In this document: positions 7,943 to 50,915 of the stretch, piece after piece | Layout: each line of letters starts with the position of its first letter | Numbering within the stretch: the stretch's first letter is position 1 | From: an uncultured Blastocatellaceae bacterium | GTDB taxonomy: Bacteria; Acidobacteriota; Blastocatellia; Pyrinomonadales; Pyrinomonadaceae | Direction of reading: 5' to 3' | Assembly: GCA_964487505.1 (NCBI GenBank) | Contig: CAZARD010000002.1 | Span: forward strand, 2,527-66,526 | Length of the DNA stretch: 64,000 nucleotides | The notes under the pieces: model-generated | Told to the model about the DNA's origin: nothing | What the model saw: the letters and a program-made list of their open reading frames with translations, nothing else | Databases searched by the model: none | Made by a program: the position numbers and the translations under genes

Positions 7943-8644
7943 ATGGAAAAACGCCGGTACAAATACTATGACCTGATCATGGCTGCCTTCGTGGCGGTTC
8001 TTCTCTGTTCGAACCTCATCGGGGTGCACAAGGTCTCGTCCATCGAGATCCCGTTCTATGGGACGTACATTTACGGCGCCGGCGTGCTGTTTTTTCCGAT
8101 CAGCTATCTCTTCGGCGATATTCTGACCGAGGTTTACGGTTATGCCCGTTCGCGGAAGGTCATCTGGGCCGGTTTCGGAGCGCTGATCTTCGCATCGCTG
8201 ATGGCGTTCGTTGTGACGTGGCTTCCGGCCGCTTCGACCATGGATCCGGAGAAACAGAAGGCGATCGAGATGATCTTCGGACAAACGCCACGGATCGTGC
8301 TCGCCTCGCTCACGGCTTTCTGGATGGGAGAATTCGTCAATTCTTTCGTGCTCGCCAAGATAAAGCTCTGGATGTCGGGGCGTCTGCTTTTCATCCGGAC
8401 GATCGCCTCGACGATCGCGGGCGAGATCGCCGATTCGCTCGTATTTTACCCGATCGCGTTCTACGGTATCTGGTCGAACGAGCAGCTGATCAGCGTGATG
8501 ATCGGCAATTACTTCATCAAGGTGATGTGGGAGGTCTTCGCGACCCCGTTCACCTATCTGATCGTTGGTTTTCTCAAAAGGGCCGAGCACGAGGATTATT
8601 ACGACCGCGACACGGATTTCAATCCGTTCAGTCTCGATGCCTGA
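7943..8644 (+). CDS. yhhQ: queuosine precursor transporter (YhhQ/Vut, DUF165)
   Basis: Family signature YGAGVLFFPISYLFGDILTEVYGY and 6 TM helices. It starts directly after the purD stop. Confidence 0.85.
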   Translation: MEKRRYKYYDLIMAAFVAVLLCSNLIGVHKVSSIEIPFYGTYIYGAGVLFFPISYLFGDILTEVYGYARSRKVIWAGFGALIFASLMAFVVTWLPAASTMDPEKQKAIEMIFGQTPRIVLASLTAFWMGEFVNSFVLAKIKLWMSGRLLFIRTIASTIAGEIADSLVFYPIAFYGIWSNEQLISVMIGNYFIKVMWEVFATPFTYLIVGFLKRAEHEDYYDRDTDFNPFSLDA

Positions 8645-8707
8645 TCCCGCCCGCGTTTTCACTGATCCCGTCGCCCTCAGCGCGGCGTTCCGTCACGTTA
8701 CAGACAT

Positions 8708-10987
8708 ATGAAGCTTCAGATCTCAACACCTATCGTCTCACTCGGGGAATTTCCGTTCGTCGAGATCTCGAGCGGGCACGCCACGAAACTGGCTTCGGCG
8801 GTCGCTCAGATCGCGTACAAGACGGAGATCGGCGACGCGACCGTCGGCGATCTGCTTTCGTATTTTCCGGCCCGTTACGAAGACCGCTCGAATTTCATCG
8901 GGATCGATCAACTTTCGCCGAACCTTGAGGCCTCGGTCGAGCTCTTTGTGCGGGTCTCGGGAGGTTACCGTGTCGGCCGCAACCGGTCGCCGAAGGCGCC
9001 TCCGCTCTTCATTTTTGAGGTCAACGCCGCCGATGCGGAACGGCGTATGAAGCCGGTCGTCGTCTCGTGGTTCGTTTCGGGGCGATCTGCCCCGCGGGTC
9101 ATCGAATATTACCAGCGCCGGTTCGCGATGGGCGTACGCTTCGTTGCTTTTGGGAAATGGGAATGGGACAGTCGGCGCGGAACGCTCGTGCTCCGCGTCA
9201 ACAAGCCTGACGATCTCGAGATCCTGCCTCCGATCGGGGAACAGGATAAACCAGAGGGCGCATCGCCGGGCGACTCGGACGTCTCGCTGGACGACGACGT
9301 CGGGAATCCCCGCCTGACAATGGTGCACACCGGCCGTATCGTCCCCGTTTACAGAAAACTTGGCCCGTTTCAGACAAAGCGCCTCCGGGAAATAATGTAC
9401 TGCGTGACCACGAACCTCGATCCGGCCTCGGTCGTGGATCCGCTGCCGGAAGAGAATCGGATCCGGCGCGTTCTCGTAGCTCGTTCGGAAGCGATCGCGA
9501 GGATCCATTTTCCTTCCGACGACGACCGGGCGTCCGATTACCAGCGGTTCCGGTCGGCCGCGCAGCGACGGTTCATTTATGACGAGTTCCTTTGGCTGAG
9601 CTGCGCGCTCGAGATCCGCAAGAAGCTGCGGATCGAGGACGAAAAGGCGTGCCGTTTCGATATCGGCCCGGAATTCATAGCGCGGGCCGAAAAACTGGCA
9701 CCGTTCGAACTGACCCGAGCGCAGAAGCGCGTCCTCGCGACCGTGTTCGGCGAGATGGGCTCGACGCGGCCCATGAACCGACTGATCCAGGGGGACGTCG
9801 GGAGCGGGAAGACGATAGTCGCTTTCCTCGCGATGTTCGCGGCGGTCGGGAACGGCTACCAGGCGGCTTTGATGGCGCCGACCGAGATCCTGGCGGAGCA
9901 GCATTTCCGGAACGCGACCGCGTTGTTCCGCGATCAACAGATCGAGATCGCACTTCTCACGGGAAGCCTCAAGGCCGCCGAAAAGCGCGCGGTCCGGGCC
10001 CGGATAGCCGACGGTTCGGCCCGGATCGTTATCGGTACGCACGCCATCATCCAGGACGGGGTCAATTTCGCGCGGCTGGGGCTTGCGGTGATCGACGAAC
10101 AACACCGCTTCGGCGTTCTTCAACGTGCCGAGATCCGCGCGCGCGGACTCAACCCTGACATTCTGGTCATGACCGCGACGCCGATCCCCAGATCGCTGGC
10201 GATGACGGTCTACGGCGAGCTCGACGTCTCCATCATCAACGAGATGCCGCCCGGCCGCACGGCGGTCAAGACGGTGGTCGTCGGCGAGGACCAGCGAAAC
10301 GGGGTCTATCGGGGAATGCGGCGTGAGATCGACGCCGGGCATCAGGTCTATGTCGTCTATCCGTTGGTCGAGGAATCGGAACGCTCCGACCTGAAGGCGG
10401 CGACGAAGATGTTCGAGGAGCTTCGCGACCGTGTATTCCCGGAGATACGCGTCGGATTGCTTCACGGCCGGATGAAACCGTCGGAAAAAGAATCGGTGAT
10501 GCGCGATTTCGTTGCCGGAACGATCAAGATCCTGGTCTCGACGACCGTCATCGAGGTCGGCGTCGATGTCCCGAACGCGAGCCTGATGGTCATCGAGCAC
10601 GCCGAGCGCTTCGGGCTCTCGCAGCTCCACCAGCTTCGAGGGCGCGTCGGGCGCGGCGCGAAACAGTCGTACTGCGTGCTGCTCGCCGACTACAAAAGGA
10701 CGGCGAACGCCAAGGAACGGCTCGCGATCATGGAGGAGACCGCCGACGGTTTCAAGATCGCAGACAAAGACCTGGAGATTCGCGGGCAGGGCGAAGTCCT
10801 GGGCACGCGCCAGGCGGGGATCAGGTTCTTGAAGATCGCCGATCTGTCGCGTGACCGGGCGATACTGGAAGACGCCCGCGAGGACGCGCGGGAGATCGTC
10901 GAGACGTCGGACCGGGCGCCCGGCGCGGCGCGCCTGCGCGACGCGATCGTCAATGATCCCCGATTTCAACTTGGAGGCATTCTCTGA
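8708..10987 (+). CDS. recG: ATP-dependent DNA helicase RecG
   Basis: Walker A GDVGSGKT, the DEQH box (VIDEQHRFG), motif VI QLHQLRGRVGRG, and an N-terminal wedge/OB region. Confidence 0.95.
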   Translation: MKLQISTPIVSLGEFPFVEISSGHATKLASAVAQIAYKTEIGDATVGDLLSYFPARYEDRSNFIGIDQLSPNLEASVELFVRVSGGYRVGRNRSPKAPPLFIFEVNAADAERRMKPVVVSWFVSGRSAPRVIEYYQRRFAMGVRFVAFGKWEWDSRRGTLVLRVNKPDDLEILPPIGEQDKPEGASPGDSDVSLDDDVGNPRLTMVHTGRIVPVYRKLGPFQTKRLREIMYCVTTNLDPASVVDPLPEENRIRRVLVARSEAIARIHFPSDDDRASDYQRFRSAAQRRFIYDEFLWLSCALEIRKKLRIEDEKACRFDIGPEFIARAEKLAPFELTRAQKRVLATVFGEMGSTRPMNRLIQGDVGSGKTIVAFLAMFAAVGNGYQAALMAPTEILAEQHFRNATALFRDQQIEIALLTGSLKAAEKRAVRARIADGSARIVIGTHAIIQDGVNFARLGLAVIDEQHRFGVLQRAEIRARGLNPDILVMTATPIPRSLAMTVYGELDVSIINEMPPGRTAVKTVVVGEDQRNGVYRGMRREIDAGHQVYVVYPLVEESERSDLKAATKMFEELRDRVFPEIRVGLLHGRMKPSEKESVMRDFVAGTIKILVSTTVIEVGVDVPNASLMVIEHAERFGLSQLHQLRGRVGRGAKQSYCVLLADYKRTANAKERLAIMEETADGFKIADKDLEIRGQGEVLGTRQAGIRFLKIADLSRDRAILEDAREDAREIVETSDRAPGAARLRDAIVNDPRFQLGGIL

Positions 10988-19650: not shown

Positions 19651-19692
19651 ATCGAAATCCAAAATCCCAAATCGAAAATCCAAAATCCAATC
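19651..19692. repeat. heptamer tandem array (6 units, ATCSAAA-type)
   Basis: ATCGAAA TCCAAAA TCCCAAA TCGAAAA TCCAAAA TCCAATC, abutting the stop codon at 19693. Confidence 0.8.
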
Positions 19693-30821: not shown

Positions 30822-31017
30822 AATCCAAATTACGTCTTAGGGTTTCCATCGCGGATTCTTGACGGGTTTCGGACTGGCTGACGTTCCGCCCTTCGCGGAC
30901 TTTGCGTGGGAAAATGCCTTTTTGGCGAGTGGACGCCGGTTCCTCGCGCAAAGCCCGCAAAGATCGCAACGGCGACAATCATAAAGATTCGCCTCGATGC
31001 GTAATCCCGGATGAATG
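30822..31017. repeat. dispersed hairpin repeat, copy 2
   Basis: By eye about 85-90 percent identical to 44121-44312. It contains paired arms CGTTCCG..CTTCGCG..CTTTGCG / CGCAAAG..CGCAAAG..CGCAACG. Confidence 0.85.
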
Positions 31018-36293: not shown

Positions 36294-36442
36294 GATCCAA
36301 GATTCAAGAGTCAAGATTCAAGAGTCAAGATTCAAGAGTCAAGATTCAAGAAATCCAAATTCCAAATTCCAAATTCCAAAATCCCAGATCCCAGATCCCA
36401 GATCCCAGATCCCAAATCCCAAATCCCAAATGCCAAATGCCA
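36294..36442. repeat. 149-bp in-phase heptamer array (about 21 units)
   Basis: GATCCAA, then (GATTCAA GAGTCAA)x3.5, GAAATCCAA, (ATTCCAA)x3, AATCCCA, (GATCCCA)x4, (AATCCCA)x2, (AATGCCA)x2. It runs from the asnS stop codon to 24 nt before the lipoprotein ATG. Confidence 0.95.
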
Positions 36443-38433: not shown

Positions 38434-40270
38434 ATCCAAAAAGAAAAAAAAGATCGATTACACACGGGCCTGGGCCGAAGCGCGAAAGCTGATCTGGAGC
38501 TACCGCTGGCGGCTGCTCGTCGGACTGGGACTGATGCTCGCAAGCCGCGCCGCCGGAATGGTCCTTCCGTACTCGACGAAGTTCCTGGTCGACAACGTGT
38601 TCGGCGAGCGGCATTTCGAACTGCTCGGCTGGATCGCGCTCGCCGTCGGCCTGTCGACGGTTTTTCAGGCGGTGACATCGTTCACGCTTTCGCAGGTTCT
38701 CGGCGTCGCCGCGCAGCGCGCGATCACGGAGATGCGCAAGCGCGTGCAGGCGCACATTGAGCGCCTGCCGACCTCCTATTTCGATTCGACGCAGACCGGA
38801 CAGTTGATCTCGCGGATCATGCGCGATGCCGAAGGGATAAGGAACCTCGTCGGAACAGGGCTCGGCCAGATAGTCGGCGGACTGCTGTCGGCGCTCGTTT
38901 CGATGATCGTTCTGTTCTATCTGAACTGGCAGATCACGCTGATAACGCTCGCTGTGCTCGCGATCTTCGGATATGTATTGAGCTACGCATTCAAGCAGTT
39001 GCGTCCTTTGTTCCGTGACCGCGGCGAGATCGAGGCCGAGGTCACGGGCCGTCTCAACGAAGGCTTGGGCGGAATCCGAATCGTCAAAGCATATACTGCG
39101 GAGAAGCGCGAAGAACTCTCGTTCGCGCGCGGGGCGCACAAGCTTTTCAGAAACATCGCTAGATCGATGACCGGCGTTTCGGCGACGGGCGCGTTTGCTT
39201 CGGTGATCATCGGCGCGATCGCGGTCATCATGATCTGGTTCGGAGGCAACGCGGTCATCGCTAACATGCAGGATCCGACGCGTGGAATGACCTCGGGCGA
39301 TTTTACAATGTACATCGCGTTTACGATCTTCATGGTCATCCCGATCGTCGATCTGGCGAACATCGGAACGCAGATCACCGAAGCGTTCGCCGGGCTCGAC
39401 CGGATCTCGGAGGTCTTCGCGATGCGGACCGAGACCGACGAGGACAAGAACAAGGCAGCGATTCCGAGGCTCGACGGGGCCGTCGATTTTGAGGACGTTC
39501 ATTTCGAGTATGAGGCGGGCGTGCCGGTTCTAAAGGGCGTCTCATTCCACGCTGCCGCGGGAACGACGACGGCGCTCGTCGGGTCGAGCGGGTCAGGGAA
39601 ATCGACGATCCTGAGCCTCGTTCTGAACTTCATACAGCCCGGCCGCGGCCGCGTTCTGATAGACGGGCGCGACCTCGGATCCGTCAAGCTTCAAGACTAC
39701 CGGCGACATCTCGGGGTCGTGCTCCAGGACAACTTCCTGTTTGACGGAACGATACTCTCGAACATTAGATTTGCGAATCCGCACGCGGATTTCGACAAGA
39801 TCCGCGAGGTCTGCAGGATCGCGAACGCCGATGAGTTCATCGACAAGTTCCCGGACAAGTACGATACCGTCGTCGGCGAGCGTGGTGTCAAACTGTCGGG
39901 CGGCCAAAGGCAGCGGATCGCGATCGCCCGCGCGCTGCTTGCGAATCCGCGGATCCTGATACTCGACGAGGCGACGAGTTCGCTCGATTCCGAAAGCGAG
40001 GCGTTGATCCAGGAAGGCCTCCGCCGCCTGCGCGAGGGCCGAACGACATTCGTCATCGCCCACCGCCTTTCGACCATTCGTTCGGCGGATCAGATCCTGG
40101 TCGTCGAGGCCGGCGCAATACTCGAGCGCGGCACGCACGAAGAACTGATCGCGATCGGCGGCCGCTACAAGCAGCTTTACGACAAGCAGTACCGGTTCGA
40201 ACAGAACCTCTTTGTCAACCCCGGCGAAGAAATTCTAAATGAGGAGAACAACGCAGTTTCGAAACTATAG
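38426..40270 (+). CDS. ABC transporter, fused permease/ATPase (exporter type)
   Basis: 6-TM domain followed by Walker A GSSGSGKST, signature LSGGQRQR, Walker B ILILDEATS and H-loop AHRLST. The GTG start at 38426 overlaps the Rrf2 stop by 8 nt. Confidence 0.9.
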   Translation: MSESKKKKKIDYTRAWAEARKLIWSYRWRLLVGLGLMLASRAAGMVLPYSTKFLVDNVFGERHFELLGWIALAVGLSTVFQAVTSFTLSQVLGVAAQRAITEMRKRVQAHIERLPTSYFDSTQTGQLISRIMRDAEGIRNLVGTGLGQIVGGLLSALVSMIVLFYLNWQITLITLAVLAIFGYVLSYAFKQLRPLFRDRGEIEAEVTGRLNEGLGGIRIVKAYTAEKREELSFARGAHKLFRNIARSMTGVSATGAFASVIIGAIAVIMIWFGGNAVIANMQDPTRGMTSGDFTMYIAFTIFMVIPIVDLANIGTQITEAFAGLDRISEVFAMRTETDEDKNKAAIPRLDGAVDFEDVHFEYEAGVPVLKGVSFHAAAGTTTALVGSSGSGKSTILSLVLNFIQPGRGRVLIDGRDLGSVKLQDYRRHLGVVLQDNFLFDGTILSNIRFANPHADFDKIREVCRIANADEFIDKFPDKYDTVVGERGVKLSGGQRQRIAIARALLANPRILILDEATSSLDSESEALIQEGLRRLREGRTTFVIAHRLSTIRSADQILVVEAGAILERGTHEELIAIGGRYKQLYDKQYRFEQNLFVNPGEEILNEENNAVSKL

Positions 40271-40821: not shown

Positions 40822-41619
40822 ATGAAAAATATTCAAGCATCAGGCTGGATCCGGCGTTTGACCGCACTTTCTTTGGCGGTCGTCCTGTATTCCACTTCGG
40901 TCGCGTTTTTGTTCGCCGCCACGTCGGCGAGGGCGCTTGGCGAGATCTCAGTCAGCGGAGGCAGCAGTACCGCCCGCTTTGTTTGGGTGAACGGCGAAAA
41001 GGCCTTCAGCGGCCGGACCTTCGTGTCGGGCGCATTGATCGCGACCGAGGCTGACAGCGCCGCCGTCCGGCTCAATAACGGTTCCTCGATCCGTCTTGAG
41101 GCGAACAGTTCGGTCGAATTGAGCTTTTCGGAAACGTCGATCGGCGGACGCGTCATCTCCGGGAAGGTTGATGTTTTCGCCGCCCAGGGAGTCGATGTGA
41201 ACGTGACGACGCCAGACGCTGTGATCTCCGATGAGAATGCCGATGCAAAACGCTTTACGCTTGACCTTAATTCGGGAACCACGACCATGAATGTCGAAAC
41301 CGGCTCGGTCCTACTCAGCAACGGCAACGGCGCGGTCCCGGTCAGTGTCGGCGGTGACGACGAACGCGACGGCAGCGGGAAATGCGTCGACACCGACAAG
41401 GACGGCAAGCTGGAGTGCGATTGTGACAGCGACGACAAGAAAGACAGCAACGGCAACTGCGTCGATACCGACAAGGACGGCGTGCTTGAATGCGGTTGCG
41501 GCGGCGGCGGCGGAATGGCCGCCTGGAAGCCGGCGGCGCTCTTTGCGGGAATAATCGGAACGGCGGTCGTCGCGCTATTGATCGCGACCCGTGACAACGA
41601 AGAGAGCCCGCGCCGCTGA
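40822..41619 (+). CDS. secreted FecR-like domain protein with Asp-rich Ca-binding-type repeats and C-terminal Gly-run + TM anchor
   Basis: Signal/anchor, then two CVDTDKDG(K/V)LEC repeats (DxDxDG), then GCGGGGG followed by the helix AALFAGIIGTAVVALLIA and a charged tail. Confidence 0.55.
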   Translation: MKNIQASGWIRRLTALSLAVVLYSTSVAFLFAATSARALGEISVSGGSSTARFVWVNGEKAFSGRTFVSGALIATEADSAAVRLNNGSSIRLEANSSVELSFSETSIGGRVISGKVDVFAAQGVDVNVTTPDAVISDENADAKRFTLDLNSGTTTMNVETGSVLLSNGNGAVPVSVGGDDERDGSGKCVDTDKDGKLECDCDSDDKKDSNGNCVDTDKDGVLECGCGGGGGMAAWKPAALFAGIIGTAVVALLIATRDNEESPRR

Positions 41620-41982: not shown

Positions 41983-43656
41983 ATGAAGGAATGTCCGGAA
42001 TGCAAGGTCTGTTACGGCGACAATGTCGCGATGTGTCCTGCCGACCGCAAGGAGACGCGATTCTCGTTGCCCGGGGACCAGTTGCTCGCAGGCCGTTACT
42101 TTCTTGAGCGCCAGCTTGGAAAAGGCGCGATGGGGCAGGTCTATCTCGCGCGCGACAAGAAATTCGACGCGCGCTGGGTCGCGGTCAAGACCGTGCGTCA
42201 GGATCTGCTGAGTTCAGATGACCTTCAGGAAGGCGAGGCGATCGCCCGGTTCGAGCGCGAAGCGCAATCGGCCGCCTCGATCCAGCATCCCAACACCGTT
42301 TCGGTCACGGATTTCGGTGAAACGCCGGAAGGCGTGTTCTATCTCGTGATGGAATACGTGGAGGGAGAGACTCTCCATCGACTACTGCGCCGCGAAGGCA
42401 CGCTCTCGATCAAACGTGCGGTCAGGCTGCTTCGTCAGATCGCCGACGGCGTCGAGGCGGCCCACGACCGGGGCATCCTTCACCGCGACCTGAAGCCGGC
42501 GAACATCTTCCTTATGTCGAAAGGTCGTCCCGGAGACGACGGATTTATCAAGGTGGGCGATTTCGGTCTCGCGAAGATCGTGAACCAAACCGCAACCGAT
42601 ATCAATTCGAAGAATTCTCCGTCGTCGCGGGGCATCATCGGCACGCCCGAGTTCATGGCACCCGAGCAGATGCAGCCCGAACTCGGCGTCGACGTCAGGG
42701 CCGATATCTATGCGCTTGGAACGATCGCGTACCTGATGCTCGGTGGCCGGACCCCGTTCACGGGCGATCTGATGCAGCTCGTGATGCAAAAGGTAATGCA
42801 GTCGCCGCCGGCGCTCTCGACGATACGAACCGACATTCCGGCGGATGTCGAACGGGTGATTATGAGGGCGCTCGAGACCGACAAGGGCCGGCGACCGGCG
42901 ACGGTCGGCGAGTGGATCGGCGAACTTGAGCAGGCATCGGGCGATGTCGACGAACCGCGCGGCAGCGGTTCGGCCCGGCTGGTTATCTTGGCGCCGGTCG
43001 GCGCCGAGGTCTACGTGGATGACGAAAGGCGCGGGAGCATTGGGAGTTCGGGTCGGCTGGTGCTCGCCAACGTTCCGGCCGGACAGCATGTTCTGCGCGT
43101 CTCGAACGCCGGCGACAAGGATGACGAGCGGGTCATCGAACTGCGCGAAGGCGGTGAAGAGCAGGTCATACAGGCGCAGCTCAGGAGTGTGAAGGCGTCT
43201 TCGAGCCAGCCGTCGCCGTCACAGGGAAGCCAGAGCGGGACCGCGCAGTCGAGCATTATGCCGGGCATCGTCGCGTGCGCGAACTGCGGAGCGCGGTTTG
43301 CCGAAGGCGTCAAATTCTGCGGACGTTGCGGGAACCGGAGTTTCACCGCCGTGAGCGCCGGACCTAACTCGCGCAGCTATTCGACTTGTCCGCGCTGTTC
43401 CGCGATGCTCCCGCAGGATGCCAAGTTTTGCGGCAAATGCGGCGCGCAGTTCGGCCATCTGACGGCCTCGCCGCCTGTCTCCGGCGTCGCGCCCTTCGTG
43501 AATCCGGGCGTCACCTATCCGCCGCCGGTGACGCCGCCGACCTTCACCGCGCCGATGCAACCGCCGGTTAGCGTTCAGAGAATCTGCCCCCGATGCGGAA
43601 ATGTGGTATCCCCCGGATCGCGTTTCTGCGGCAAGTGTGGCGGACCCGTGGCCTGA
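41983..43656 (+). CDS. Ser/Thr protein kinase with N-terminal zinc ribbon, PEGA domain and three C-terminal zinc ribbons
   Basis: Kinase motifs GKGAMGQVY, VAVK, HRDLKPANI, DFG and APE. A PEGA-like segment (LVILAPVGAEVYVDDERRG) follows. Three CxxC..FCGxCG ribbons lie at the C-terminus. Confidence 0.9.
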   Translation: MKECPECKVCYGDNVAMCPADRKETRFSLPGDQLLAGRYFLERQLGKGAMGQVYLARDKKFDARWVAVKTVRQDLLSSDDLQEGEAIARFEREAQSAASIQHPNTVSVTDFGETPEGVFYLVMEYVEGETLHRLLRREGTLSIKRAVRLLRQIADGVEAAHDRGILHRDLKPANIFLMSKGRPGDDGFIKVGDFGLAKIVNQTATDINSKNSPSSRGIIGTPEFMAPEQMQPELGVDVRADIYALGTIAYLMLGGRTPFTGDLMQLVMQKVMQSPPALSTIRTDIPADVERVIMRALETDKGRRPATVGEWIGELEQASGDVDEPRGSGSARLVILAPVGAEVYVDDERRGSIGSSGRLVLANVPAGQHVLRVSNAGDKDDERVIELREGGEEQVIQAQLRSVKASSSQPSPSQGSQSGTAQSSIMPGIVACANCGARFAEGVKFCGRCGNRSFTAVSAGPNSRSYSTCPRCSAMLPQDAKFCGKCGAQFGHLTASPPVSGVAPFVNPGVTYPPPVTPPTFTAPMQPPVSVQRICPRCGNVVSPGSRFCGKCGGPVA

Positions 43657-43664
43657 ACGTTCCG

Positions 43665-43811
43665 GAGATTCCAGATTTCGGGGATTCCAGATTCCAGATT
43701 CCAAGATTCCAAGATTCCGGAGAAAGCGGAGAAAGCAGAGATCCCGGAGGTTCCAAAGATTCCAAAATTTCAGATTCCGGGGATTCCAGATTCCAGGGAT
43801 TCCAGATTCAG
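43665..43811. repeat. GATTCCA-type tandem array (7-9 bp units), forward polarity
   Basis: GAGATTCCA GATTTCG GGGATTCCA GATTCCA GATTCCA AGATTCCA AGATTCCG ... GGGATTCCA GATTCAGG. It begins 8 nt after the kinase stop. Confidence 0.9.
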
Positions 43812-43839
43812 GTCCTTCGAAAAACCGGAGCCACCGACC

Positions 43840-43867
43840 GTTCGTGTCGAGTTCGTGCTGCTTCGTG
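43840..43867. promoter_or_regulatory. three direct repeats GTTCGTG spaced 10-11 bp (possible response-regulator-type binding site)
   Basis: GTTCGTG (43840-46), GTTCGTG (43851-57) and CTTCGTG (43861-67). A 9-bp hairpin CGTGGATGA/TCATCCACG at 43864-43890 overlaps the last repeat. Confidence 0.25.
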
Positions 43868-44024
43868 GATGAAAAACGCTGTCATCCACGATTCCAGATT
43901 CCAAGATCAATCCCATATTACGCATTGGAGAAATTTGCCCGCGAATCCTCGCGAATTCGAGCGAACAAGGCAATTGTTCGGGATCGAATGCCTGAGATCT
44001 TATGCTGGTGTGTTTTCCAAGTTA

Positions 44025-44060
44025 TTGACATTGTTGATGTTATCAGAAGACAACAGTCAA
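44025..44060. other. AT-rich hairpin
   Basis: TTGAC(at)TGTTG - 14-nt loop - CAACAGTCAA, a 10-bp stem with a 2-nt bulge. Confidence 0.5.
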
Positions 44061-44120
44061 TGGCGGATTCGCGAAGATTGGCGGAGATTAGCGGTCTGAT
44101 TCCTATCGTTCAATTTGGGT

Positions 44121-44312
44121 TAATCCCAAATTCCGCGTTAGGATTTCCATCGCGGATTCCTGACCTGTTTCGGACTGCCTGACGTTGCGCCCTTTGCGGT
44201 CTTTGCGTGGGAAAATGCCTTTTTGGCGAGTGGATGCCGGTTCCTCGCGCAAAGCGCGCAAAGATCGCAACGGCGACAATCATAATGATTCCCCTCTATT
44301 GCGTGATCCCGG
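44121..44312. repeat. dispersed hairpin repeat, copy 3
   Basis: The best-preserved long hairpin: arms CGTTGCG-cc-CTTTGCG-gt-CTTTGCG pair with CGCAAAG-cg-CGCAAAG-at-CGCAACG. It has the same orientation as copies 1 and 2. Confidence 0.85.
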
Positions 44313-44314
44313 TT

Positions 44315-44463
44315 AATCTTGGAATCTCTGGAATCTTGGAATCTTGGAATCTTGGGATCTCAGGAATCCTGGAATCTGGAATCTTGAATCTTGAATCTGG
44401 AAACTCTGGAATCTGGAATCTTGAATCCCTCGAATCCAAGAACTCCAAATTCCAAAATCCATC
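44315..44463. repeat. TGGAATC-type tandem array (inverted polarity relative to 43665-43811)
   Basis: AATCTTGGAATCTCTGGAATCTTGGAATCTTGGAATCTTGGGATCTCAGGAATCCTGGAATCTGGAATCTTGAATC... The polarity switches back to forward over the last ~35 nt. Confidence 0.9.
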
Positions 44464-44520
44464 ATCCCGGACAAATCCCCTGACGCGATTTATCGAGGAA
44501 TATGCTAATCTTTTACCGCT

Positions 44521-45003
44521 ATGAAGATCTGCCCGCAATGCCGGCAAACCTATTCCGATGACGGTCTGAACTTCTGCCTCACCGACGGGAGCATTCTCGA
44601 TTTCCAACGGCCGACGGAAGCCCGGACGATGGTGTTCGAACAGCCACGCGTGACCAACGAATTCCGTCCCGTGCAGCAGTCTCAGCCGCCGGCGGTATGG
44701 CAGGGACAGCAGTCGGTCCAGCCCGCCCAATACGGAGCGGTTGCGCAAAGGGTCGGAAACACGGACCGTTCGCTCCCGATCATCTCGCTCCTGCTCGGGA
44801 TCTTCTCGATAATTCTCGGTTGTTTTCTGATCGGCATTCCTTTGGGGATCGGGGCAATAGTTACCGGCGGTTTTGCGATCCGGAACGAGAACAACGAACC
44901 CGATCGATACGGCGGCCGCGGGATGGCGATAGGCGGGGTCGTGACCGGCGCCGTCGGACTCGCGATCGGGCTTATCTTCGCCGTTTTATATATGGTAACC
45001 TGA
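44521..45003 (+). CDS. zinc-ribbon / DUF4190-like membrane protein
   Basis: The N-terminal MKICPQCRQTYSDDGLNFC ribbon has the same module as the kinase at 41983. A Gln/Pro-rich linker follows, then two Gly-rich TM helices. Confidence 0.7.
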   Translation: MKICPQCRQTYSDDGLNFCLTDGSILDFQRPTEARTMVFEQPRVTNEFRPVQQSQPPAVWQGQQSVQPAQYGAVAQRVGNTDRSLPIISLLLGIFSIILGCFLIGIPLGIGAIVTGGFAIRNENNEPDRYGGRGMAIGGVVTGAVGLAIGLIFAVLYMVT

Positions 45004-45032
45004 TGATATAGAATGGTTTATTATCTGATCCG

Positions 45033-46340
45033 ATGCGAGTTACACTTCGCGTAGTCGCCGGGCCCCAGACGGGCCGCGTATTTACGTTTGACCAACACGA
45101 CACCTTTATGATCGGGCGCAGCGAGGACTCGCACTTCTGCCTGCCCCAGGACAAGTATTTCTCTCGCCACCATTGTCTTGTCGAGATCGCGCCGCCGCAG
45201 GCGTTCCTTCGCGATCTCGGGTCGACGAACGGCACGTTCGTCAACGGCGTCCGCGTCGAATCGGTCTACCTCAAGAGCGGCGACCGCATCCAGGGTGGCG
45301 AAACCGTGCTTGAGGTCGAGGTGACCGGCGATCCGGAGACGCGGCCGGAGTTTCCACTCGAAGCGGGAATGCGCACGACGCCGTCGATGATTACGGTCCA
45401 GTGCCTGAATTGCGGGCTTCCTTCGAAGGCCGAGGTTTCGCGGCCCGATGCGAAGATGACGTTTCTCTGCGACGACTGCCGCGAGACGCTGAAGGCGAAC
45501 CCGCAGCCCATCCCGAATTATCAGATGATCCGCGTTCTCGGGCAGGGCGGTATGGGAAGCGTGATGCTCGCGCGGCATATCACCGACGGAAGGCCGGTCG
45601 CGATAAAGACCCTGTTGCCCGAAGTTGCGGTCTCGGAGCAGTCGCTCAAACGGTTCATGCGCGAGATCGAGGTTGCCGCATCGCTCAGGCATCCGTACAT
45701 CGTGAGCTATATCGAGCACGGCACGCACAATGGAGTCGTCTATCTTGTGACCGAATTCGTGAGCGGAATGGACGCGTCAAAGCTCGCTCGCTCGCGCGGC
45801 GGGAAACTTCCGTACCCAGAGGTCGTCAAGATCATCGAGCAGACGCTTTCCGCGCTTGATTTCGCCCACTCGCAGGGATTCGTCCACCGCGACATCAAGG
45901 AGCAGAACATTCTGGTGACCGGAAATTATCCGGGCTACGTCTCGAAACTCACCGATTTCGGGCTCGCGAAGAGTTACAAGCAGACCGGAATGAGCGGCGT
46001 AACGATGGTCGGCGACGTTGCCGGCACGATCGCGTACATGCCGCCCGAACAGGTCCGCGATTTCAAAGAGGTCCAGCCGCCGTCGGACATCTACGCGACC
46101 GGGATGACGGCCTACTCGCTTCTGACGGGGGCGCACGCGCTCGACATTTCGCCGCGCGCCGGGATCGCGGAGACAGTCAAGGCGATCTTCGAAAAGCCGA
46201 TCATTCCGATCAGCCAGCGGACCAGCGATATACCGATCCGCGTCGCGAGCGTTATCGAAACGGCGATCGCGAAGCAGGTCGAACTGCGTTGGCGATCGGC
46301 GGGCGAAATGCGCGACGCGCTGTTGCGGGCGATGAACTGA
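45033..46340 (+). CDS. FHA domain - zinc ribbon - Ser/Thr protein kinase
   Basis: FHA (GRVFTF..FMIGRS..SRHHCLV..GSTNGTFVNG), then CLNCG...CDDC, then kinase motifs GQGGMGSVM, AIK, HRDIKEQNI, DFG and PPE. Confidence 0.9.
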   Translation: MRVTLRVVAGPQTGRVFTFDQHDTFMIGRSEDSHFCLPQDKYFSRHHCLVEIAPPQAFLRDLGSTNGTFVNGVRVESVYLKSGDRIQGGETVLEVEVTGDPETRPEFPLEAGMRTTPSMITVQCLNCGLPSKAEVSRPDAKMTFLCDDCRETLKANPQPIPNYQMIRVLGQGGMGSVMLARHITDGRPVAIKTLLPEVAVSEQSLKRFMREIEVAASLRHPYIVSYIEHGTHNGVVYLVTEFVSGMDASKLARSRGGKLPYPEVVKIIEQTLSALDFAHSQGFVHRDIKEQNILVTGNYPGYVSKLTDFGLAKSYKQTGMSGVTMVGDVAGTIAYMPPEQVRDFKEVQPPSDIYATGMTAYSLLTGAHALDISPRAGIAETVKAIFEKPIIPISQRTSDIPIRVASVIETAIAKQVELRWRSAGEMRDALLRAMN

Positions 46341-46374
46341 TCGTGCAAACCGTCTTCGGCGATCGATCCTTCCG

Positions 46375-47664
46375 TCACGAGTTCCGCCGGTCCTGTGACT
46401 CCGCGTTATCGCGGATTCGCACGGCCGCGAGCATCGCTCCCATCAGCAGCCACAGGTGCCGCGCATCTTCGAACGAGCCTGTTAGACCCTGATAGAAAAA
46501 ACCGCATATTAGGCCGACCGCAAGCGTCCGCGACAATCGATCGGACCGCCAGGACCGTCGGCATAAGGGGATGACGATCGCCAGAAGCGAGATGAGTCCG
46601 ATCAATCCAGAATCTGCCGCGACATTTATGAAGGTATTGTGCGCATCGGCCAGCGTTTGCGTCCTGCCTGACGGATCGATGTAACTGATACGAAAGGGAT
46701 CGACTCCGGTGCCGCGGCCGAGGATCGGATCCGCTACGAACGCCGCGAGACCCGCCTGCCAGGTTATGAACCGTGCGCTCGGTTCAAAATGAACGCTGGC
46801 GACGTCGAACGAGAAGAGCGAATCGGGCTGCCGGGCATACGAGACGGCCGAGGCGATGAAGAACGTGAACGCGGCGCACGCGAGCGCCAACGTCAGAGTC
46901 GGGCGCAGCCAGACGGCCCGCGGCATCTGGAGATCGGAATATGCAAACAGCGCGGCCGCCAGAAATATGCCTCCGACTCCGGGCGAGATCGTCAACAACG
47001 CGCAGAGCCCGACGACGGTTAGCAGAATCGCGGCGAGCCCGCGTCCGATAACGTCGGTTCGGAGTCCGGCAACGACGATCACGGCGCCGACGTTGAGGTA
47101 GTTCGCGAGCATATTGGCGTTCACGAAGGTCGCCGCGACACGCGGATAGTCCCCTGGCGGCAGCGTGCCTTTGTGAAACAGCGTGTAAGAAAGAACGGGA
47201 TTGTCGGGCGCGATGTAGAACAGAACGGCCGACAGCACGCCCGACAACGACACGACCGAAACCGCGGCGATCCAGACCCGTAGAACAAGCTTCAGATCCT
47301 CATCGTTTCGGACCATCAGGAACGTAATGAACGGTATCGACGCCAAATAGAGTTTCCCGATCAGTTTGATCAGGCTTTGCCACGGATCGGCCGAGAACAG
47401 CGTGGAGAGTGTCAGCGCAATTGCCAAGCTTGCGGCCGGGATCAAGTAGCTGTCCCACCGGAGTTGTATCGAATGCGCAAGCAACGAGACGAAGACCGCG
47501 ACGCAAACGACCGCGAAGACGGCGTCCGATATCTGAACCGATACACCCGCGACCTTCAACGCCGGCTGCATGAACCCGAGCGCGAAGACATACAGAAGAA
47601 AGAGCCAAAATGCAGGTCTAGCCGACATCTTTGAGCAGCCTTGCGATGGCGTCCGCGAACTCAT
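46375..47664 (-). CDS. O-antigen ligase / polymerase family membrane protein (Wzy_C-like)
   Basis: About 11 TM helices and a large periplasmic loop followed by the HNTFINVAADSGLIGL block typical of the family. An alternative start is Met13 (47628). Confidence 0.7.
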   Translation of the reverse strand: MSSRTPSQGCSKMSARPAFWLFLLYVFALGFMQPALKVAGVSVQISDAVFAVVCVAVFVSLLAHSIQLRWDSYLIPAASLAIALTLSTLFSADPWQSLIKLIGKLYLASIPFITFLMVRNDEDLKLVLRVWIAAVSVVSLSGVLSAVLFYIAPDNPVLSYTLFHKGTLPPGDYPRVAATFVNANMLANYLNVGAVIVVAGLRTDVIGRGLAAILLTVVGLCALLTISPGVGGIFLAAALFAYSDLQMPRAVWLRPTLTLALACAAFTFFIASAVSYARQPDSLFSFDVASVHFEPSARFITWQAGLAAFVADPILGRGTGVDPFRISYIDPSGRTQTLADAHNTFINVAADSGLIGLISLLAIVIPLCRRSWRSDRLSRTLAVGLICGFFYQGLTGSFEDARHLWLLMGAMLAAVRIRDNAESQDRRNS

Positions 47665-48526
47665 TTATCTCGAAGTTCTGCGGATCGTCGTGGGCATCCT
47701 TGATTCCGGCGTCGATCGCCGAGTGATACGCCGGGACAAGCCACGATCCGCGCCTCGCGCTCGCCGCGAGATAAAGCAGCGCGAGCCGTTCGTATTGCGC
47801 GTCAGAAAAACCCGGGATCGGCGCGATCAGATCATTGTTCGGATTGGCCGACGCCGGATCGCGCCGCCGCGGCTGAACAAGTTCGATATGGATCTGAAGC
47901 CCCTTCGCTTCAGTCTTCAGGAAATCGCGCGCGAATTTCGTGCCGAACCCCTTTCTGACCGGTTCGGCAAAAGGCGTCGCGGTGAGCGACGCGCCAAGCC
48001 GGTTGACGAACACGTGCGCCACCGGCTGATTGATCCAAACCGAGAGCTTGTTTCCGCGCGCCGCCGGATTCGTGTCGAGATCGGCAGGGAACTCGGCGTC
48101 GATCAGGTTCGGCGTCGACGTGTCGTGGATGATGAAATAGAGCGCCGTAATCGTGGAGCCATCGGGAAGCCGGGCCGAAGACAACGGAAGATTGAGGTCG
48201 CCACCGATCTCGTCCTCGGCGATGCCCCTTTTCTCAAGATACTTCCGGATCTTGTCGCGATTCGGTTTGACGGGCTTGCCGATCAGCCTTTCAAGCGGCG
48301 CCGGCAGTTTCCGAAGCGCTTCGCCGAGCGCTCCGCCTTTGCCGTTCGGCCTCAGCAGGCAGCGGGCCTGCTCGACGGGGCTGCCCGCAAACTGCAGCGT
48401 CGCAGGGTCGAACGCACAGGGTTGGTTCTGCGCCCAAACGTCCATAAACGAGAGAACGACCATCGCCGCCGCACAGACAGATCGCCGCAGAATGGCCGTT
48501 GATTCAGGGGACTTCGTCGATTCCAT
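47618..48526 (-). CDS. secreted Amidase_2/PGRP-like (N-acetylmuramoyl-L-alanine amidase fold) protein, tentative
   Basis: Signal peptide, then blocks FIIHDTS, HVFVNRLG, HIELV and YHSAID..KDAHDDPQNF that resemble the AmpD/T7-lysozyme zinc-amidase layout. It overlaps the ligase gene start. Confidence 0.45.
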   Translation of the reverse strand: MESTKSPESTAILRRSVCAAAMVVLSFMDVWAQNQPCAFDPATLQFAGSPVEQARCLLRPNGKGGALGEALRKLPAPLERLIGKPVKPNRDKIRKYLEKRGIAEDEIGGDLNLPLSSARLPDGSTITALYFIIHDTSTPNLIDAEFPADLDTNPAARGNKLSVWINQPVAHVFVNRLGASLTATPFAEPVRKGFGTKFARDFLKTEAKGLQIHIELVQPRRRDPASANPNNDLIAPIPGFSDAQYERLALLYLAASARRGSWLVPAYHSAIDAGIKDAHDDPQNFEINEFADAIARLLKDVG

Positions 48527-48807
48527 GATTCCAGGGATGTCGTCGAATCGAGGGATTCCACGAATTCAAAAGTTCCAGAGATTCCAAGGATTCCAAGATT
48601 CCACGGATTCCAAGATTCCAGGGATTCGAATGATTCCAGAGATTCCAAGGATTCCAAGATTTCACGGATTCCAAGATTCCAGGGATGCCGTCGATTCCAA
48701 GGATTCCAAGGATTCCAAGATTCCAGAGCTTCTTAGGATGCCATAATTCCACGAATTTCTTCGATTCCAGAGATTGGGGCGATTTCAGGAATTCCAGCGC
48801 TTCCAGG
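48519..48807. repeat. 290-bp GATTCCA-type tandem array with 61-bp higher-order repeat
   Basis: Units are (R)(R)GATTCCA. Positions 48575-48635 and 48636-48696 form a near-identical 61-bp duplication. The ATG at 48526 lies inside the first unit. Confidence 0.95.
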
Positions 48808-48910
48808 CTCGTGGAGATGTCTCAAAAATCTAACGCTGTCCGTTGGCGAACGCCGACCAGCTTCTGGATTTCAAAGCTTGACAAACCACCCCAAGAAGAA
48901 AGAAATCCTT

Positions 48911-48994
48911 CCAAAATCCAAAATCCAAAATCCAAAATCCGAAATCCAAAATCCGAAATCCAAAATCCGAAATCCAAAATCCAAAATCCCAAAT
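48911..48994. repeat. 12-unit heptamer array CCAAAAT/CCGAAAT
   Basis: Perfectly in-phase 7-mers ending 8 nt from the SIS gene stop codon (49003). Confidence 0.95.
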
Positions 48995-49002
48995 GGCTCC
49001 GC

Positions 49003-50037
49003 TCAGATCGTCTTCGTGACCTTTGAAAGCGAGCGCGGAGCGTCGGCGTCGAGCCCTTTCTCGCGGGCGAGCATCGCGGCGAACAACTGGGCCGGAATTA
49101 TGAACGGGATTGGCGACAGAAACTCGTCGATCTCCGACGGCATCAGCAGCGATCTGGAGCTGAGTTTCGCGATCTCCGGATCGTTCGTTATCGCGAGGGA
49201 GTCGGCGTGAAGCTCGCGAAGGCGGTTCAACAGATCGACATTGCTCGCGCGCGTGACGCCCGACGGCCCGAAGAGTATCACCGGAAAGCGGCGCTCGACT
49301 ATCGCCAGAGGCCCGTGGAAGAAATCGGCGGACGAAAAGCGCTCGGCGACGACGTAACAGGTCTCCATCAGTTTGAGCGCGAGTTCGTATGAGTTTCCGT
49401 AGTTCAGGCCGCGACCGACGACGACGCAGTTTTCCATAAAGACGTAACGCCGCACGAGTTCCTCGACCTCGGATGTGAGCTGCAGCGCCTGGGCCGCGAA
49501 ATGCGGGATACGTTCATAATCGATCTCGCTTGCGCCAAGCGCCGCGGCGAGCATGTAAAAATGGAGCATCTGGCCGGAGTAGGTCTTGGTCGCGGCGACC
49601 GACTTTTCACGTCCGGCGTGAATCAGCAGCGTCTCATCCGCGATTTGCGCCATCGAAGAGCCGGATTCGTTCGTGATCGCGAGAGTGAGCGCTCCGGAAG
49701 CCTTGGCCTTCTCGAGCACCTCGTTGATGTCCGTGCCCTCGCCTGACTGCGATACGCCGATGACGAGCGCCCGCTTCAGGTTGAGCGTCGCTCCATAAAG
49801 CGTGAAGACCGACGGCGCCGACAGCGATACCGGGATTCCGGTCGTGATCTCAAGCAGATATCTTCCGAAGAAGGAGGCATTGTCCGAACTGCCGCGTGCG
49901 ACGAGCACGATCAGATCGATCTCGCGCGACTCAAGCGTTCGGCGCAGCGCGGCGTATTTGGCGCGTTCAGCCTGAATGGTTCGTTCGAGGACCACCGGTT
50001 GTTCGGCGATCTCCTGCAGCATTATCGACATAGTCAA
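49003..50037 (-). CDS. SIS-domain sugar-phosphate isomerase/deaminase (GlmS C-terminal-like)
   Basis: Two SIS domains, with the VARGSSDNA and GVSQSGEGTD motifs. Confidence 0.85.
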   Translation of the reverse strand: MTMSIMLQEIAEQPVVLERTIQAERAKYAALRRTLESREIDLIVLVARGSSDNASFFGRYLLEITTGIPVSLSAPSVFTLYGATLNLKRALVIGVSQSGEGTDINEVLEKAKASGALTLAITNESGSSMAQIADETLLIHAGREKSVAATKTYSGQMLHFYMLAAALGASEIDYERIPHFAAQALQLTSEVEELVRRYVFMENCVVVGRGLNYGNSYELALKLMETCYVVAERFSSADFFHGPLAIVERRFPVILFGPSGVTRASNVDLLNRLRELHADSLAITNDPEIAKLSSRSLLMPSEIDEFLSPIPFIIPAQLFAAMLAREKGLDADAPRSLSKVTKTI

Positions 50038-50915
50038 ACGATCTCCGCGGAGGCCGATGCCATTGCCCCGCGCATCTTGTTAAGTTCTTTCAGGACCGCA
50101 TTTATCGCTCCGCCGACGAGTATGACCAACGCTGTCAAATACAGCCAAAGCATCAGGATGATGACGGCGCCGAGCGATCCGTACGTCCTATTGTAGGTGT
50201 TGAAGTACTCAAGATAAAGGCGGAACCCGTTTGTCAGCAACAGCCAGAGTACTATGGCGACGATCGAACCGGGCGTGATCCAGCGCCATTCAGCTTCCGG
50301 ATACGACGGCATCAGATTGTAGATCAGTTCGCAGGCGAACAGCATTATCGCGAGCATCGCGATCCACTCGACCGTGACGAGCGCGAGCGGCGACGTCAGA
50401 CCGATACCGACCGATGCGAGACCGAGCTGCACGATCTGCCATCCGTAAAAGACAAACGCGAGCACGAGCGCGGCGAGGATCGTCAGCGCGATCGTCATAC
50501 CGATCGAAAGCGCCTTGGTCTTGAACCAGACGCGCGTCTCCTTGACGCCGTAAACCGAATTCAGGGCGATCCGCAGCGAATCCATCCCCGCCGAAGCCGA
50601 CCAGACCGCGATCAGGATACCGATCGTCAGTTTGCCGCCGGAACTGTTCGCGATGATCTCTTCGACAGTTCGCTGGACCAGGTCAAATGCCGTGAGCGGC
50701 ATCAACTGGCGCATATAGGCATAAAGTTCCGTCTTAAGTTCGGCGGTCGAGTCGAGGACGAGTCCGAAAAGCGAGACGAGGAAAAAGAGGAGCGGAAAAA
50801 TCGAGAACGAGAAATAGAAGGCGACCTGCGCCGCCCGGCTGAAGATATCGTCGTGAAACGCCTTCCTGTATAGAAGTCGGACGAAATCGATGACGTTGAA
50901 CAATGCGTCGATCAT
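50034..50915 (-). CDS. YihY/BrkB family membrane protein
   Basis: 6-TM pattern with the conserved N-terminus FHDDIFSRAAQVAFYFSFSIFPLL. A 4-nt overlap links it to the SIS gene. Confidence 0.85.
   Translation of the reverse strand: MIDALFNVIDFVRLLYRKAFHDDIFSRAAQVAFYFSFSIFPLLFFLVSLFGLVLDSTAELKTELYAYMRQLMPLTAFDLVQRTVEEIIANSSGGKLTIGILIAVWSASAGMDSLRIALNSVYGVKETRVWFKTKALSIGMTIALTILAALVLAFVFYGWQIVQLGLASVGIGLTSPLALVTVEWIAMLAIMLFACELIYNLMPSYPEAEWRWITPGSIVAIVLWLLLTNGFRLYLEYFNTYNRTYGSLGAVIILMLWLYLTALVILVGGAINAVLKELNKMRGAMASASAEIV

Follow-up and report, generated by a model that had tools for sequence, protein, structure and literature searches.

In a 64-kb stretch of contig CAZARD010000002.1 from an uncultured Blastocatellaceae bacterium (Acidobacteriota), hereafter the window, the 476-nt gap between a SIS-domain gene and the gene of a 302-residue secreted protein consists largely of short tandem repeats. 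The tract belongs to a dispersed family of heptamer-class simple-sequence repeats (SSRs) with the unit T-G-G-R-A-T-Y, which is altered by slippage of whole units and by duplication of larger blocks. With rather better than even confidence, we read the gap as a lineage-specific expansion of this genome-wide family, which parted two genes that most relatives keep side by side or overlapping. Hypermutability of the repeats is demonstrated, whereas a regulatory role is not.

The gap (48527-49002; all coordinates are positions in the window) separates two genes of the minus strand. The upstream SIS gene (49003-50037; Pfam PF01380, E 1e-33) ends with a stop codon at 49003-49005. The open reading frame (ORF) of the 302-aa protein occupies 47618-48526 and is followed by a Wzy_C/O-antigen-ligase-like gene. 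The G+C content of the gap is 44%, versus 59% for the window. Read in the sense of the genes, the gap starts with array A (48910-48994), which lies 8 nt from the SIS stop codon and is made of 12 in-phase heptamers TGGATTT/CGGATTT, also written TTTTGGA/TTTCGGA, corresponding on the plus strand to eight CCAAAAT, three CCGAAAT and one CCCAAAT. Tandem Repeats Finder (TRF) describes array A with a period of 7, 12.1 copies, 91% matches and no indels. A non-repetitive spacer of ~135 nt (48775-48909), located outside all TRF rows and containing degenerate units in its 3' part, leads to array B (48519-48774; 48518-48774 by TRF). On the minus strand, array B comprises about 30 units, in each of which the heptamer core TGGAATC is extended by 1-2 spacer nucleotides, giving units of 8-9 nt; 18 of the cores are exact. 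TRF resolves array B at periods of 9, 17, 61 and 87. The 61-nt period extends over 48554-48725 (2.8 copies, 87% matches), and the two copies of the corresponding higher-order duplication, 48575-48635 and 48636-48696, are identical at 55 of 61 positions. Together, arrays A and B amount to ~42 units and 342 nt.

An earlier description of this locus, made without database searches (the sequence-only reading), had already recognized the twelve phased heptamers 8 nt from the SIS stop, the near-identical 61-bp duplication and the start codon embedded in the array, all of which are confirmed here. Some of its other statements need adjustment. It took the whole gap to be repetitive, which is true of most of the gap (~72%) and not of all of it. 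Its unique spacer of ~100 bp is obtained if degenerate units are counted as repeats, versus the ~135 nt delimited by TRF. The main array had been presented as GATTCCA-type repeats, and this core is indeed present; however, the units are 8-9 nt long and are not pure heptamers.

The ATG of the 302-aa gene (48526-48524) coincides with the junction of two array B units (TGGAATC-ATGGAATC). No in-frame start codon is present upstream of this ATG, and the signal peptide would be too short if the next in-frame ATG were used. The first ten residues of the protein (MESTKSPEST) are encoded by degenerate units and are followed by a signal-peptide-like segment ending in ...VWA/QN; signal peptides of the AXA-QN type are also carried by the orthologs. 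The window protein itself has no match in Pfam, nor does a sequence search against the PDB return any. Its AlphaFold model is poor, with a predicted local distance difference test score (pLDDT) of 66, and a Foldseek search of the PDB with that model gave nothing below E 0.06. Seven of 26 orthologs match Amidase_2 (PF01510) weakly, with a best E of 2.5e-4; thus, the amidase-like identity assigned to the gene in the sequence-only reading holds in a weak sense only. Homologues were located with an alignment-based genome scan, a scan with the single protein giving no matches, and nearly all of them are found in metagenome-assembled genomes (MAGs) of Pyrinomonadaceae/Blastocatellia (Acidobacteriota).

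The unit family is not confined to this junction. According to TRF, T-G-G-R-A-T-Y units fill three more intergenic gaps of the window. Five TGGATTT-type units on the minus strand (19655-19690) begin 2 nt past the stop of a PrsW-FHA protease gene. The gap between an Asp/Asn-tRNA synthetase gene (stop at 36443) and a SprT-like gene is filled by a minus-strand array (36294-36442) composed of TGGCATT, TGGGATT, TGGGATC, TGGAATT and TTGAATC/TTGACTC units, of which the part at 36351-36442 holds (TGGGATY)x8 with G3 runs. The third gap contains minus-strand TGGAATC-type arrays (43666-43907), which start 10 nt past a kinase stop and are antisense to the flanking plus-strand genes, and a plus-strand array upstream of a DUF4190 gene (44315-44461), in which TGGAATC-type units are succeeded by a short inverted tract of the TGGATTT type. 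All window arrays with at least 3.5 copies are intergenic and lie 0-10 nt from a stop codon. Relative to the flanking genes, four are in sense and two in antisense orientation. The heptamer TGGAATC occurs 44 times in the window versus 11.3 +/- 3.5 times in shuffled sequences, none of 100 shuffles reaching 44, and 37 of the 44 copies are concentrated in two gaps (18 in 48519-48769 and 19 in 43657-44520). Neighbors of the family include Asp/Asn- and Pro-tRNA synthetases, the PrsW-FHA protease and Ser/Thr kinases, that is, no single gene class. These mixed neighbors, along with an array in a convergent gap of a relative (see below), indicate a genome-wide feature rather than a contingency locus. 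The tie to an envelope operon, which the sequence-only reading had proposed, is consequently not upheld. The tract has the properties of the heptamer-SSR class, namely, tandem units of 5-11 nt, mostly of 7 nt, amplification at multiple loci, a bias toward non-coding positions and variation by whole units.

Direct evidence for the latter comes from the comparison of two assemblies, the window and a 110.8-kb metagenome contig of the Joint Genome Institute (JGI; L001). The 302-aa protein is encoded with no residue changed by the JGI contig and by Logan assemblies of several runs, and the SIS protein is identical on the JGI contig and on 7 Logan contigs. Over 20.9 kb, the window and L001 are 99.59% identical, with 49 mismatched positions (45 substitution events) and 10 gap openings. 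Nine of the 10 gap openings fall in arrays. L001 has one extra GATTCCA (+7 nt) at 43683 and 11 additional nucleotides in 44337-44357. In array A, it is longer by 16 nt (a 7-nt plus a 9-nt unit) at 48934-48937, and three substitutions reshuffle the T/C variants. By contrast, array B (257 nt) is base-for-base the same in both assemblies, including the 61-nt duplication. Furthermore, a Logan contig with 3 single-nucleotide polymorphisms (SNPs) in 4.2 kb relative to the window (L002) displays another unit order at the end of the array that begins at 44315. The arrays thus gain, lose and reshuffle whole units between near-identical strains. In this comparison of close relatives, which the sequence-only reading had recommended, array A differs in length and array B does not.

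The possibility that L001 is the window itself was considered and rejected; at 99.59% identity it represents a different strain or assembly. The tenth indel between the two is located in coding sequence, where one GCG of (GCG)x5 differs at 41498-41500 in a FecR-like gene (40822-41619), resulting in an in-frame length polymorphism of an alanine/arginine run. The SNPs are clustered, with 12 in ~150 nt at the 5' end of a BrkB-like gene (50718-50871) and further clusters at 38914-38953 and 39268-39844, the remainder of the 20.9 kb being nearly identical. This distribution suggests local recombination between strains.

Mis-assembly of the tract, or of the 61-nt duplication, from short reads is the least probable of the explanations weighed here. 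Short-read unitigs do break in the arrays, and repeats that exceed the k-mer in length are difficult to assemble with the right number of copies. Thirteen Logan contigs from 11 distinct runs end inside the arrays, either 93 nt upstream of the ATG or 26-43 nt past the SIS stop, thereby confirming the array edges while precluding the sizing of the arrays. However, two assemblies of 99.6% identity agree over the 257-nt array and its duplication, the edges recur in the JGI contig as well as in the 13 Logan contigs, and arrays are found at the same place in the orthologs of other species. In practical terms, such arrays break short-read assemblies and create spurious ORF calls in these MAGs. Two JGI-annotated ORFs, of 56 aa (48822-48992, minus strand) and 80 aa (43619-43861, plus strand), are largely translated heptamer arrays and almost certainly represent spurious gene calls due to the repeats.

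The history of the junction can be traced in relatives, which were available as loci of 12-20 kb. In most Pyrinomonadaceae, the SIS gene overlaps the ortholog of the 302-aa gene (ATATGA) or stands tens of nucleotides away from it. A SIS C-terminal motif was detectable in 41 loci, and in 33 of them the SIS stop and the conserved mature N-terminus of the protein (A-Q-N-x-x-C) lie 50-137 nt apart, versus 569 nt for the window and 585 nt for L001. The tight junction in relatives suggests that the ancestral pair was co-transcribed and probably translationally coupled, the repeats having been inserted or expanded between the two genes. Relatives with arrays at this position are also found. In L208, the protein of which is 84% identical to that of the window, an array of TGGAATCYY units, inside which the contig breaks, reaches the ATG. 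In L209 (72%), ~100 nt of TGGAATT units end 12 nt before the ATG, and in L008 (71%), (TTTGGAA)x7 stands directly after the SIS stop. The SIS-to-gene gap of L009 (69%) is devoid of an array. In a census of the window and 81 related loci (900 kb), period 7 accounts for 74 of the 105 tandem arrays, whereas periods 6 and 8 account for two and seven, respectively. This dominance of period 7 indicates that the lineage as a whole is prone to heptamer repeats. Across Pyrinomonadaceae, the heptamer units are diverse, often arranged in inverted pairs of ~4-5 copies, and located beside gene ends.

In L009, (TCGGAWT)x~10 together with a 190-nt (TGGAATCYY)x22 fills another gap of the same gene cluster, between the convergent Wzy_C-like and FHA-kinase genes. 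The arrays of this locus are positioned at 2991-3215, where (TTCCCCTT)x28 extends over 225 nt, and at 8049-8327. In the window, the gap between the Wzy_C-like and FHA-kinase genes measures only 34 nt and is repeat-free.

Whole units are added, removed and reshuffled by slippage, and larger blocks are duplicated, as exemplified by the 61-nt repeat. Under the favored reading of a lineage-specific expansion, two formerly adjacent cistrons would have been uncoupled, and the 302-aa gene would have recruited its ATG and its first ~10 codons from the last repeat units. Scans of the gap for a sigma-70-like promoter or an intrinsic terminator found none. Given that the genes are on the same strand, that they are coupled in relatives and that neither a promoter nor a terminator was detected, transcription most likely runs through the tract, which would then serve as an intercistronic spacer and 5' leader. 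An effect on expression, if any, would then be quantitative, exerted through leader length or the loss of translational coupling, rather than that of an on/off switch, a sponge or a methylation switch. Several observations weigh against this history. Array B is the same in both assemblies, so that we infer its instability from the sister arrays and from the 61-nt duplication. The sigma-70 scan may not fit acidobacterial promoters. TGGAAT-type units persist at or near the junction in orthologs that are 70-84% identical, despite the fast turnover of the repeats, which hints at selection or at an active homogenizing or seeding process rather than at pure drift. Finally, a single unit family dominates this genome, whereas other Pyrinomonadaceae carry many different heptamers, and near-identical units dominate in Xanthomonas and Nostoc (PMC4692102).

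The persistence of the unit is also the starting point for an alternative in which the arrays are functional cis-elements. A protein would recognize tandem T-G-G-R-A-T-Y and control translation initiation, mRNA stability or chromosome structure; candidates for such a binder are a single-strand-binding protein of the cold-shock/S1 type acting on mRNA or a DNA-binding nucleoid protein. We consider this explanation unlikely. In its favor, one unit family is shared by four gaps of the window and by relatives at 69-84% protein identity, and its arrays stand 0-10 nt from stop codons and, in three lineages, 0-12 nt from start codons. The organism is also poor in Shine-Dalgarno (SD) motifs. Among 56 predicted starts in the window, 12 have a 4-nt and 5 have a 5-nt SD-like match at positions -22 to -4, and translation thus seems to be initiated largely without SD. 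Since SD motifs are rare throughout the window, the missing SD at the 302-aa gene is normal here. In this respect, the organism resembles the Bacteroidetes, cyanobacteria and Beggiatoaceae in which heptamers are located beside start codons (PMC4679880). In addition, GGGAATC and GGGGATT are enriched in unrelated phyla (PMC4692102), and TGGAATC arrays are frequent on metagenome contigs whose GC content is 50-72%.

On the other hand, no protein that binds tandem T-G-G-R-A-T-Y is known, and the arrays occur in both orientations to the flanking genes, as described above. The 36 arrays located in co-oriented gaps display no sense-strand bias, either G/C or T/A (20 versus 16), and co-oriented, convergent and divergent gaps are alike in the number of arrays per gap (Fisher p = 1), so that enrichment in a gap class is not significant; these statistics use a crude home-made gene caller (GC3- or RNY-based). 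Among 120 metagenome loci with TGGAATC arrays, the arrays are widespread and often form inverted pairs, the gene calls in these loci being unreliable for orientation. Moreover, other Pyrinomonadaceae carry unrelated heptamers, array length varies freely among near-identical strains, and no regulatory effect of the Xanthomonas repeats was found in published work (PMC4692102).

A more far-reaching version of the same idea, which we judge to be quite unlikely, holds that tandem (T/G)GG(A/G)AT(C/T) heptamers are a functional element across phyla, recognized at mRNA 3' ends and in SD-less 5' leaders. The recognizer may be a conserved single-strand-binding protein or the transcription/translation machinery itself. 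The heptamers enriched in Xanthomonas, Nostoc, the Pyrinomonadaceae clade and many uncultured high-GC soil bacteria may then be something other than slippage debris. In the window, the element may have taken over the junction of the formerly coupled pair and even provided the start codon. The inverted arrays of relatives may correspondingly form a 27-39-bp stem around the start codon, with complementarity kept despite sequence change.

Inverted arrays surrounding the start codon are found at the SIS-to-gene junction of L036 (5912-6037), L024 (5915-6029), L044 (5933-6026), L027 (5952-6057) and L022 (1565-1687). There, a tandem (CACAGAGA)-type array that stands just upstream of the ATG has its inverted complement in a (TCTCTGTG)-type array, which lies in the part of the gene that codes for the signal peptide (LCVSVSLW). 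The arms are 27-39 nt long, 79-92% complementary and 37-66 nt apart, with the start codon enclosed between them. The arm sequence varies by species (ACAGAGAC, ACAGATGA, ACAGATAG, GCAGAGAC), and complementarity is retained, which suggests a conserved hairpin. Such a hairpin could gate translation of the gene.

The demonstrated instability of the arrays raises the question of phase variation, the first of the mechanisms put forward in the sequence-only reading. In this scenario, slippage would heritably and reversibly switch or tune downstream envelope genes. The part of the proposal that stands is hypermutability, with 9 of the 10 indels in arrays and unit numbers polymorphic between 99.6%-identical strains, array A included. 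Also in its favor are the products of the downstream genes, one a secreted protein with weak similarity to Amidase_2 and the other Wzy_C/O-antigen-ligase-like, and the heptamers that lie within the 5' coding part of the ortholog in several relatives, where a change by one unit would shift the frame. In the window, however, the tandem units are located upstream of the ATG and the part within the ORF is degenerate, so that the reading frame is unaffected; nor were promoter hexamers found, the spacing of which could be altered. The repeats are not restricted to surface or host-interaction genes either, since the same family flanks a tRNA synthetase and other housekeeping genes and occurs in convergent gaps, and array B is the same in two strains. 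Compared with SSR contingency loci, the window arrays are thus alike in hypermutability and differ in their placement relative to frame and promoter and in the kinds of genes involved. We therefore regard a contingency locus as very unlikely.

Tandem heptamers themselves code for the N-terminal signal peptide of many orthologs, as in L014 (5923-6003), L034 (5917), L030 (5580), L031 (5941), L033 (2029), L017 (2385), L011 (5980), L026 (5938), L039 (1832) and L041 (5932). One example reads ATG(AATTCAA)x4.7 ... (CTTCTGT)x3.9, which is translated as MNSKFKIQNSKFVLL...FCLLSS. Unlike the window gene, these orthologs could be genuinely phase-variable, as a one-unit change shifts the frame there.

Another mechanism put forward was a protein-sponge RNA of the CsrB/RsmY type, in which a GGA-rich transcript sequesters CsrA. 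The dozens of GGA motifs on which it was based are real: we counted 36 on the sense strand of the 476-nt gap versus 8.8 expected, a density comparable to that of CsrB. The defining features of a sponge RNA are absent, however. Only 2 of the 36 GGA motifs occur in the A-N-GGA context and none in GGAUG. According to the predictions, most of the triplets are paired, and more so than the average base, with a mean P(unpaired) of 0.20 versus 0.32 overall, and only one of the 36 exceeds 0.7. At E<=1, Rfam returned nothing but a chance miRNA match over 43000-50000. Whether the leader is folded in full, on either strand, or as four sub-segments, the folds are no better than those of dinucleotide shuffles (z +0.65, +0.51, -0.04, -0.20 and -0.52, the value of -0.04 being that of the spacer 48775-48909). 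The tract lacks a terminator and runs straight into the start codon of the 302-aa gene, unlike a separate small RNA gene, and some of the sister arrays are antisense to their flanking genes. A sponge is accordingly extremely unlikely.

Nor does the remaining mechanism, an epigenetic switch based on clustered GANTC sites methylated by a CcrM- or HinfI-type methyltransferase, fare better. The estimate of about twenty pentamers agrees with our count of 20 in the gap, which corresponds to 42 per kb versus 5 per kb elsewhere. However, GANTC is an incidental by-product of the GATTC core of TGGAATC and thus belongs to one unit variant only. All 20 sites are in array B and none in array A, and the pentamer is missing from the sister arrays with TTTTGGA, TGGATTT, TGGGATT, TGGGATC and TGGCATT units. 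Outside the arrays, it occurs at about the frequency expected from composition and is not avoided. We give this switch very little credence.

A role of non-B structure, that is, of a G-quadruplex, i-motif or long hairpins as proposed for GGGAATC repeats, is hardly more than conceivable for this gap. The sister array at 36351-36442, with its (TGGGATY)x8 and G3 runs, would be compatible with it, and many arrays in relatives and metagenomes are inverted pairs with potential stems of 30-65 bp. By contrast, the units of arrays A and B contain GG only, so that neither array has the four or more GGG runs looked for and a three-tetrad G-quadruplex is impossible. The two arrays are oriented alike, neither of them has an inverted partner in the gap, and the predicted folds are not more stable than those of shuffles.

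Inverted pairs of unrelated heptamers with ~4-5 copies are common across Pyrinomonadaceae loci, their arms 15-55 nt apart (typically ~45) and a few nucleotides from a gene end or start. They are found at L040:11071-11178 (also in L045, L046 and L048), L044:10811-10885, L067:4903-4996, 7016-7087 and 8587-8673, and L069:9078-9191 and 10130-10231. In L040, (TGTTCGT)x4.4 ... (CAACGAA)x4.4 follows a canonical terminator and ends 5 nt before an ATG. The recurrence of a size of about four units with units that are not G-rich is a misfit with the G-quadruplex account of the four-unit preference in Xanthomonas.

Heptamers are the most over-represented long SSRs in bacteria; what they do has remained unexplained for more than 30 years since the short tandemly repeated repetitive (STRR) sequences of cyanobacteria were described. 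These heptanucleotides were reportedly described by Mazel et al. in 1990. A genome with STRRs carries a few heptamer families, each amplified in tandem at many intergenic sites, and no function has been assigned to them. The repeats of the window are alike in that few heptamer families are amplified between genes, and differ in units and phylum; the literature consulted makes no connection between STRRs and a start codon lying within an array. Rehm et al. (PMC4692102) cite the STRRs as the heptanucleotides of Calothrix PCC 7601. According to Mrazek, Guo and Shah (2007), as cited in PMC4679880 and PMC4692102, heptanucleotides are the most abundant among long SSRs with units of 5-11 nt, which are found in large, non-host-adapted genomes of higher GC content and are attributed to polymerase slippage. 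The predominance of period 7 (74 of 105 arrays) is in line with this class, which is a statistical one and not a mechanism.

The closest counterparts were described by Rehm et al. (2015, PLoS One, PMC4692102), as GGGAATC repeats in Xanthomonas campestris and X. axonopodis pv. citri (Xcc and Xac) and as GGGGA(C/T)T repeats in Nostoc/Anabaena. These are present at ~180 loci per genome, 89-93% of them intergenic, at a mean distance of 28 nt from the upstream ORF. They comprise 2-26 units, often in inverted pairs, and are associated with all gene classes; their length and sequence differ between Xcc and Xac, and they are transcribed, with no function identified (PMC4692102). The window arrays share nearly the same unit (TGGAATC versus GGGAATC, TGGGATT versus GGGGATT) and are likewise intergenic, near stop codons, associated with mixed gene classes and variable in length. 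Unlike the Xanthomonas and Nostoc repeats, they occur in Acidobacteriota, and their first base is T, so that a three-tetrad G-quadruplex cannot form. Array B further differs in its 8-9-nt units and its higher-order periods of 17 and 61 nt, and the gap tract as a whole, with ~42 units and 342 nt, exceeds the longest reported there, lies inside an operon and has a start codon embedded in it. The sequence-only reading did not know of any description of this repeat family. Our literature search, with exact repeat strings and the names Pyrinomonadaceae, Blastocatellia and Chloracidobacterium, found no description of such repeats in Acidobacteriota, although families with similar units have been published, as outlined above.

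A second counterpart is the TAACTGA repeat, which is present in many intergenic regions of marine Beggiatoaceae, some cyanobacteria and Bacteroidetes (MacGregor 2015, PMC4679880). It often ends a few nucleotides before an SD-less start codon and shows indels in 7-nt steps between strains; a protein binding it post-transcriptionally has been hypothesized but is unproven (PMC4679880). Similarly, TGGAAT-type arrays reach or approach the ATG in three lineages, in an SD-poor genome. The units are unrelated, however, and TAACTGA sets mostly have 2-6 copies, whereas the window arrays are also located after stop codons and in both orientations.

The present data thus add Acidobacteriota to the groups in which heptamer repeats are described, with a unit that differs from that of Xanthomonas by one base, and provide direct evidence of unit gain and loss between strains that are 99.6% identical. 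The junction amounts to a natural experiment of unusual clarity: two genes that overlap (by ATGA) in many relatives are here 476 nt apart, and the downstream one has acquired an array-derived start codon. It is therefore suited to asking whether such an array is a neutral spacer or has an effect on coupling, translation initiation or mRNA fate.

Repeats of this kind are also encountered beyond the relatives. A scan of viral contigs gave 77 matches, nearly all of a 9-nt period (probably coding) in large viruses, with one pure heptamer array, and hence no support for phage-borne spread. In the metagenome loci L094, L102, L106, L118, L123, L143, L156, L202 and L204, GATTCCA and TGGAATC form inverted pairs. 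A metagenome contig of 64% GC (L187) contains a ~170-nt palindromic element three times in 2 kb (133-306, 408-548 and 1667-1843), with (GAATCTG)n arms and the core CAGGGCATC. This is a dispersed repeat of the TGGAATC heptamer in an unrelated high-GC organism, resembling repetitive extragenic palindromic sequences (REPs) or MITEs (miniature transposable elements with inverted repeats).

The window has a dispersed element of its own, of ~170-190 nt, with copies at 44126-44316, 30825-31010 and 3676-3840, the latter two being 90% and 79% identical to the first. All have the same orientation, and each is located in a long gap 160-230 nt upstream of a plus-strand gene. The element holds short repeats of the CGCAAAG type, and JGI annotates an ORF of 48 aa on its minus strand. 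The copy at 44126-44316 has no match in Rfam (a scan covering 43000-50000 only), and the element was not found in the relatives' loci examined. This copy abuts the TGGAATC array at 44315 and lies in the 864-nt gap between the plus-strand Ser/Thr kinase and DUF4190 genes (43657-44520). TGGAATC-type arrays stand opposed at the two ends of this gap (43666-43907 and 44315-44427, the latter followed by a re-inverted short tract at 44433-44461) and flank the dispersed element, so that the arrangement resembles either a pair of inverted arrays that enclose a long loop or a composite insertion.

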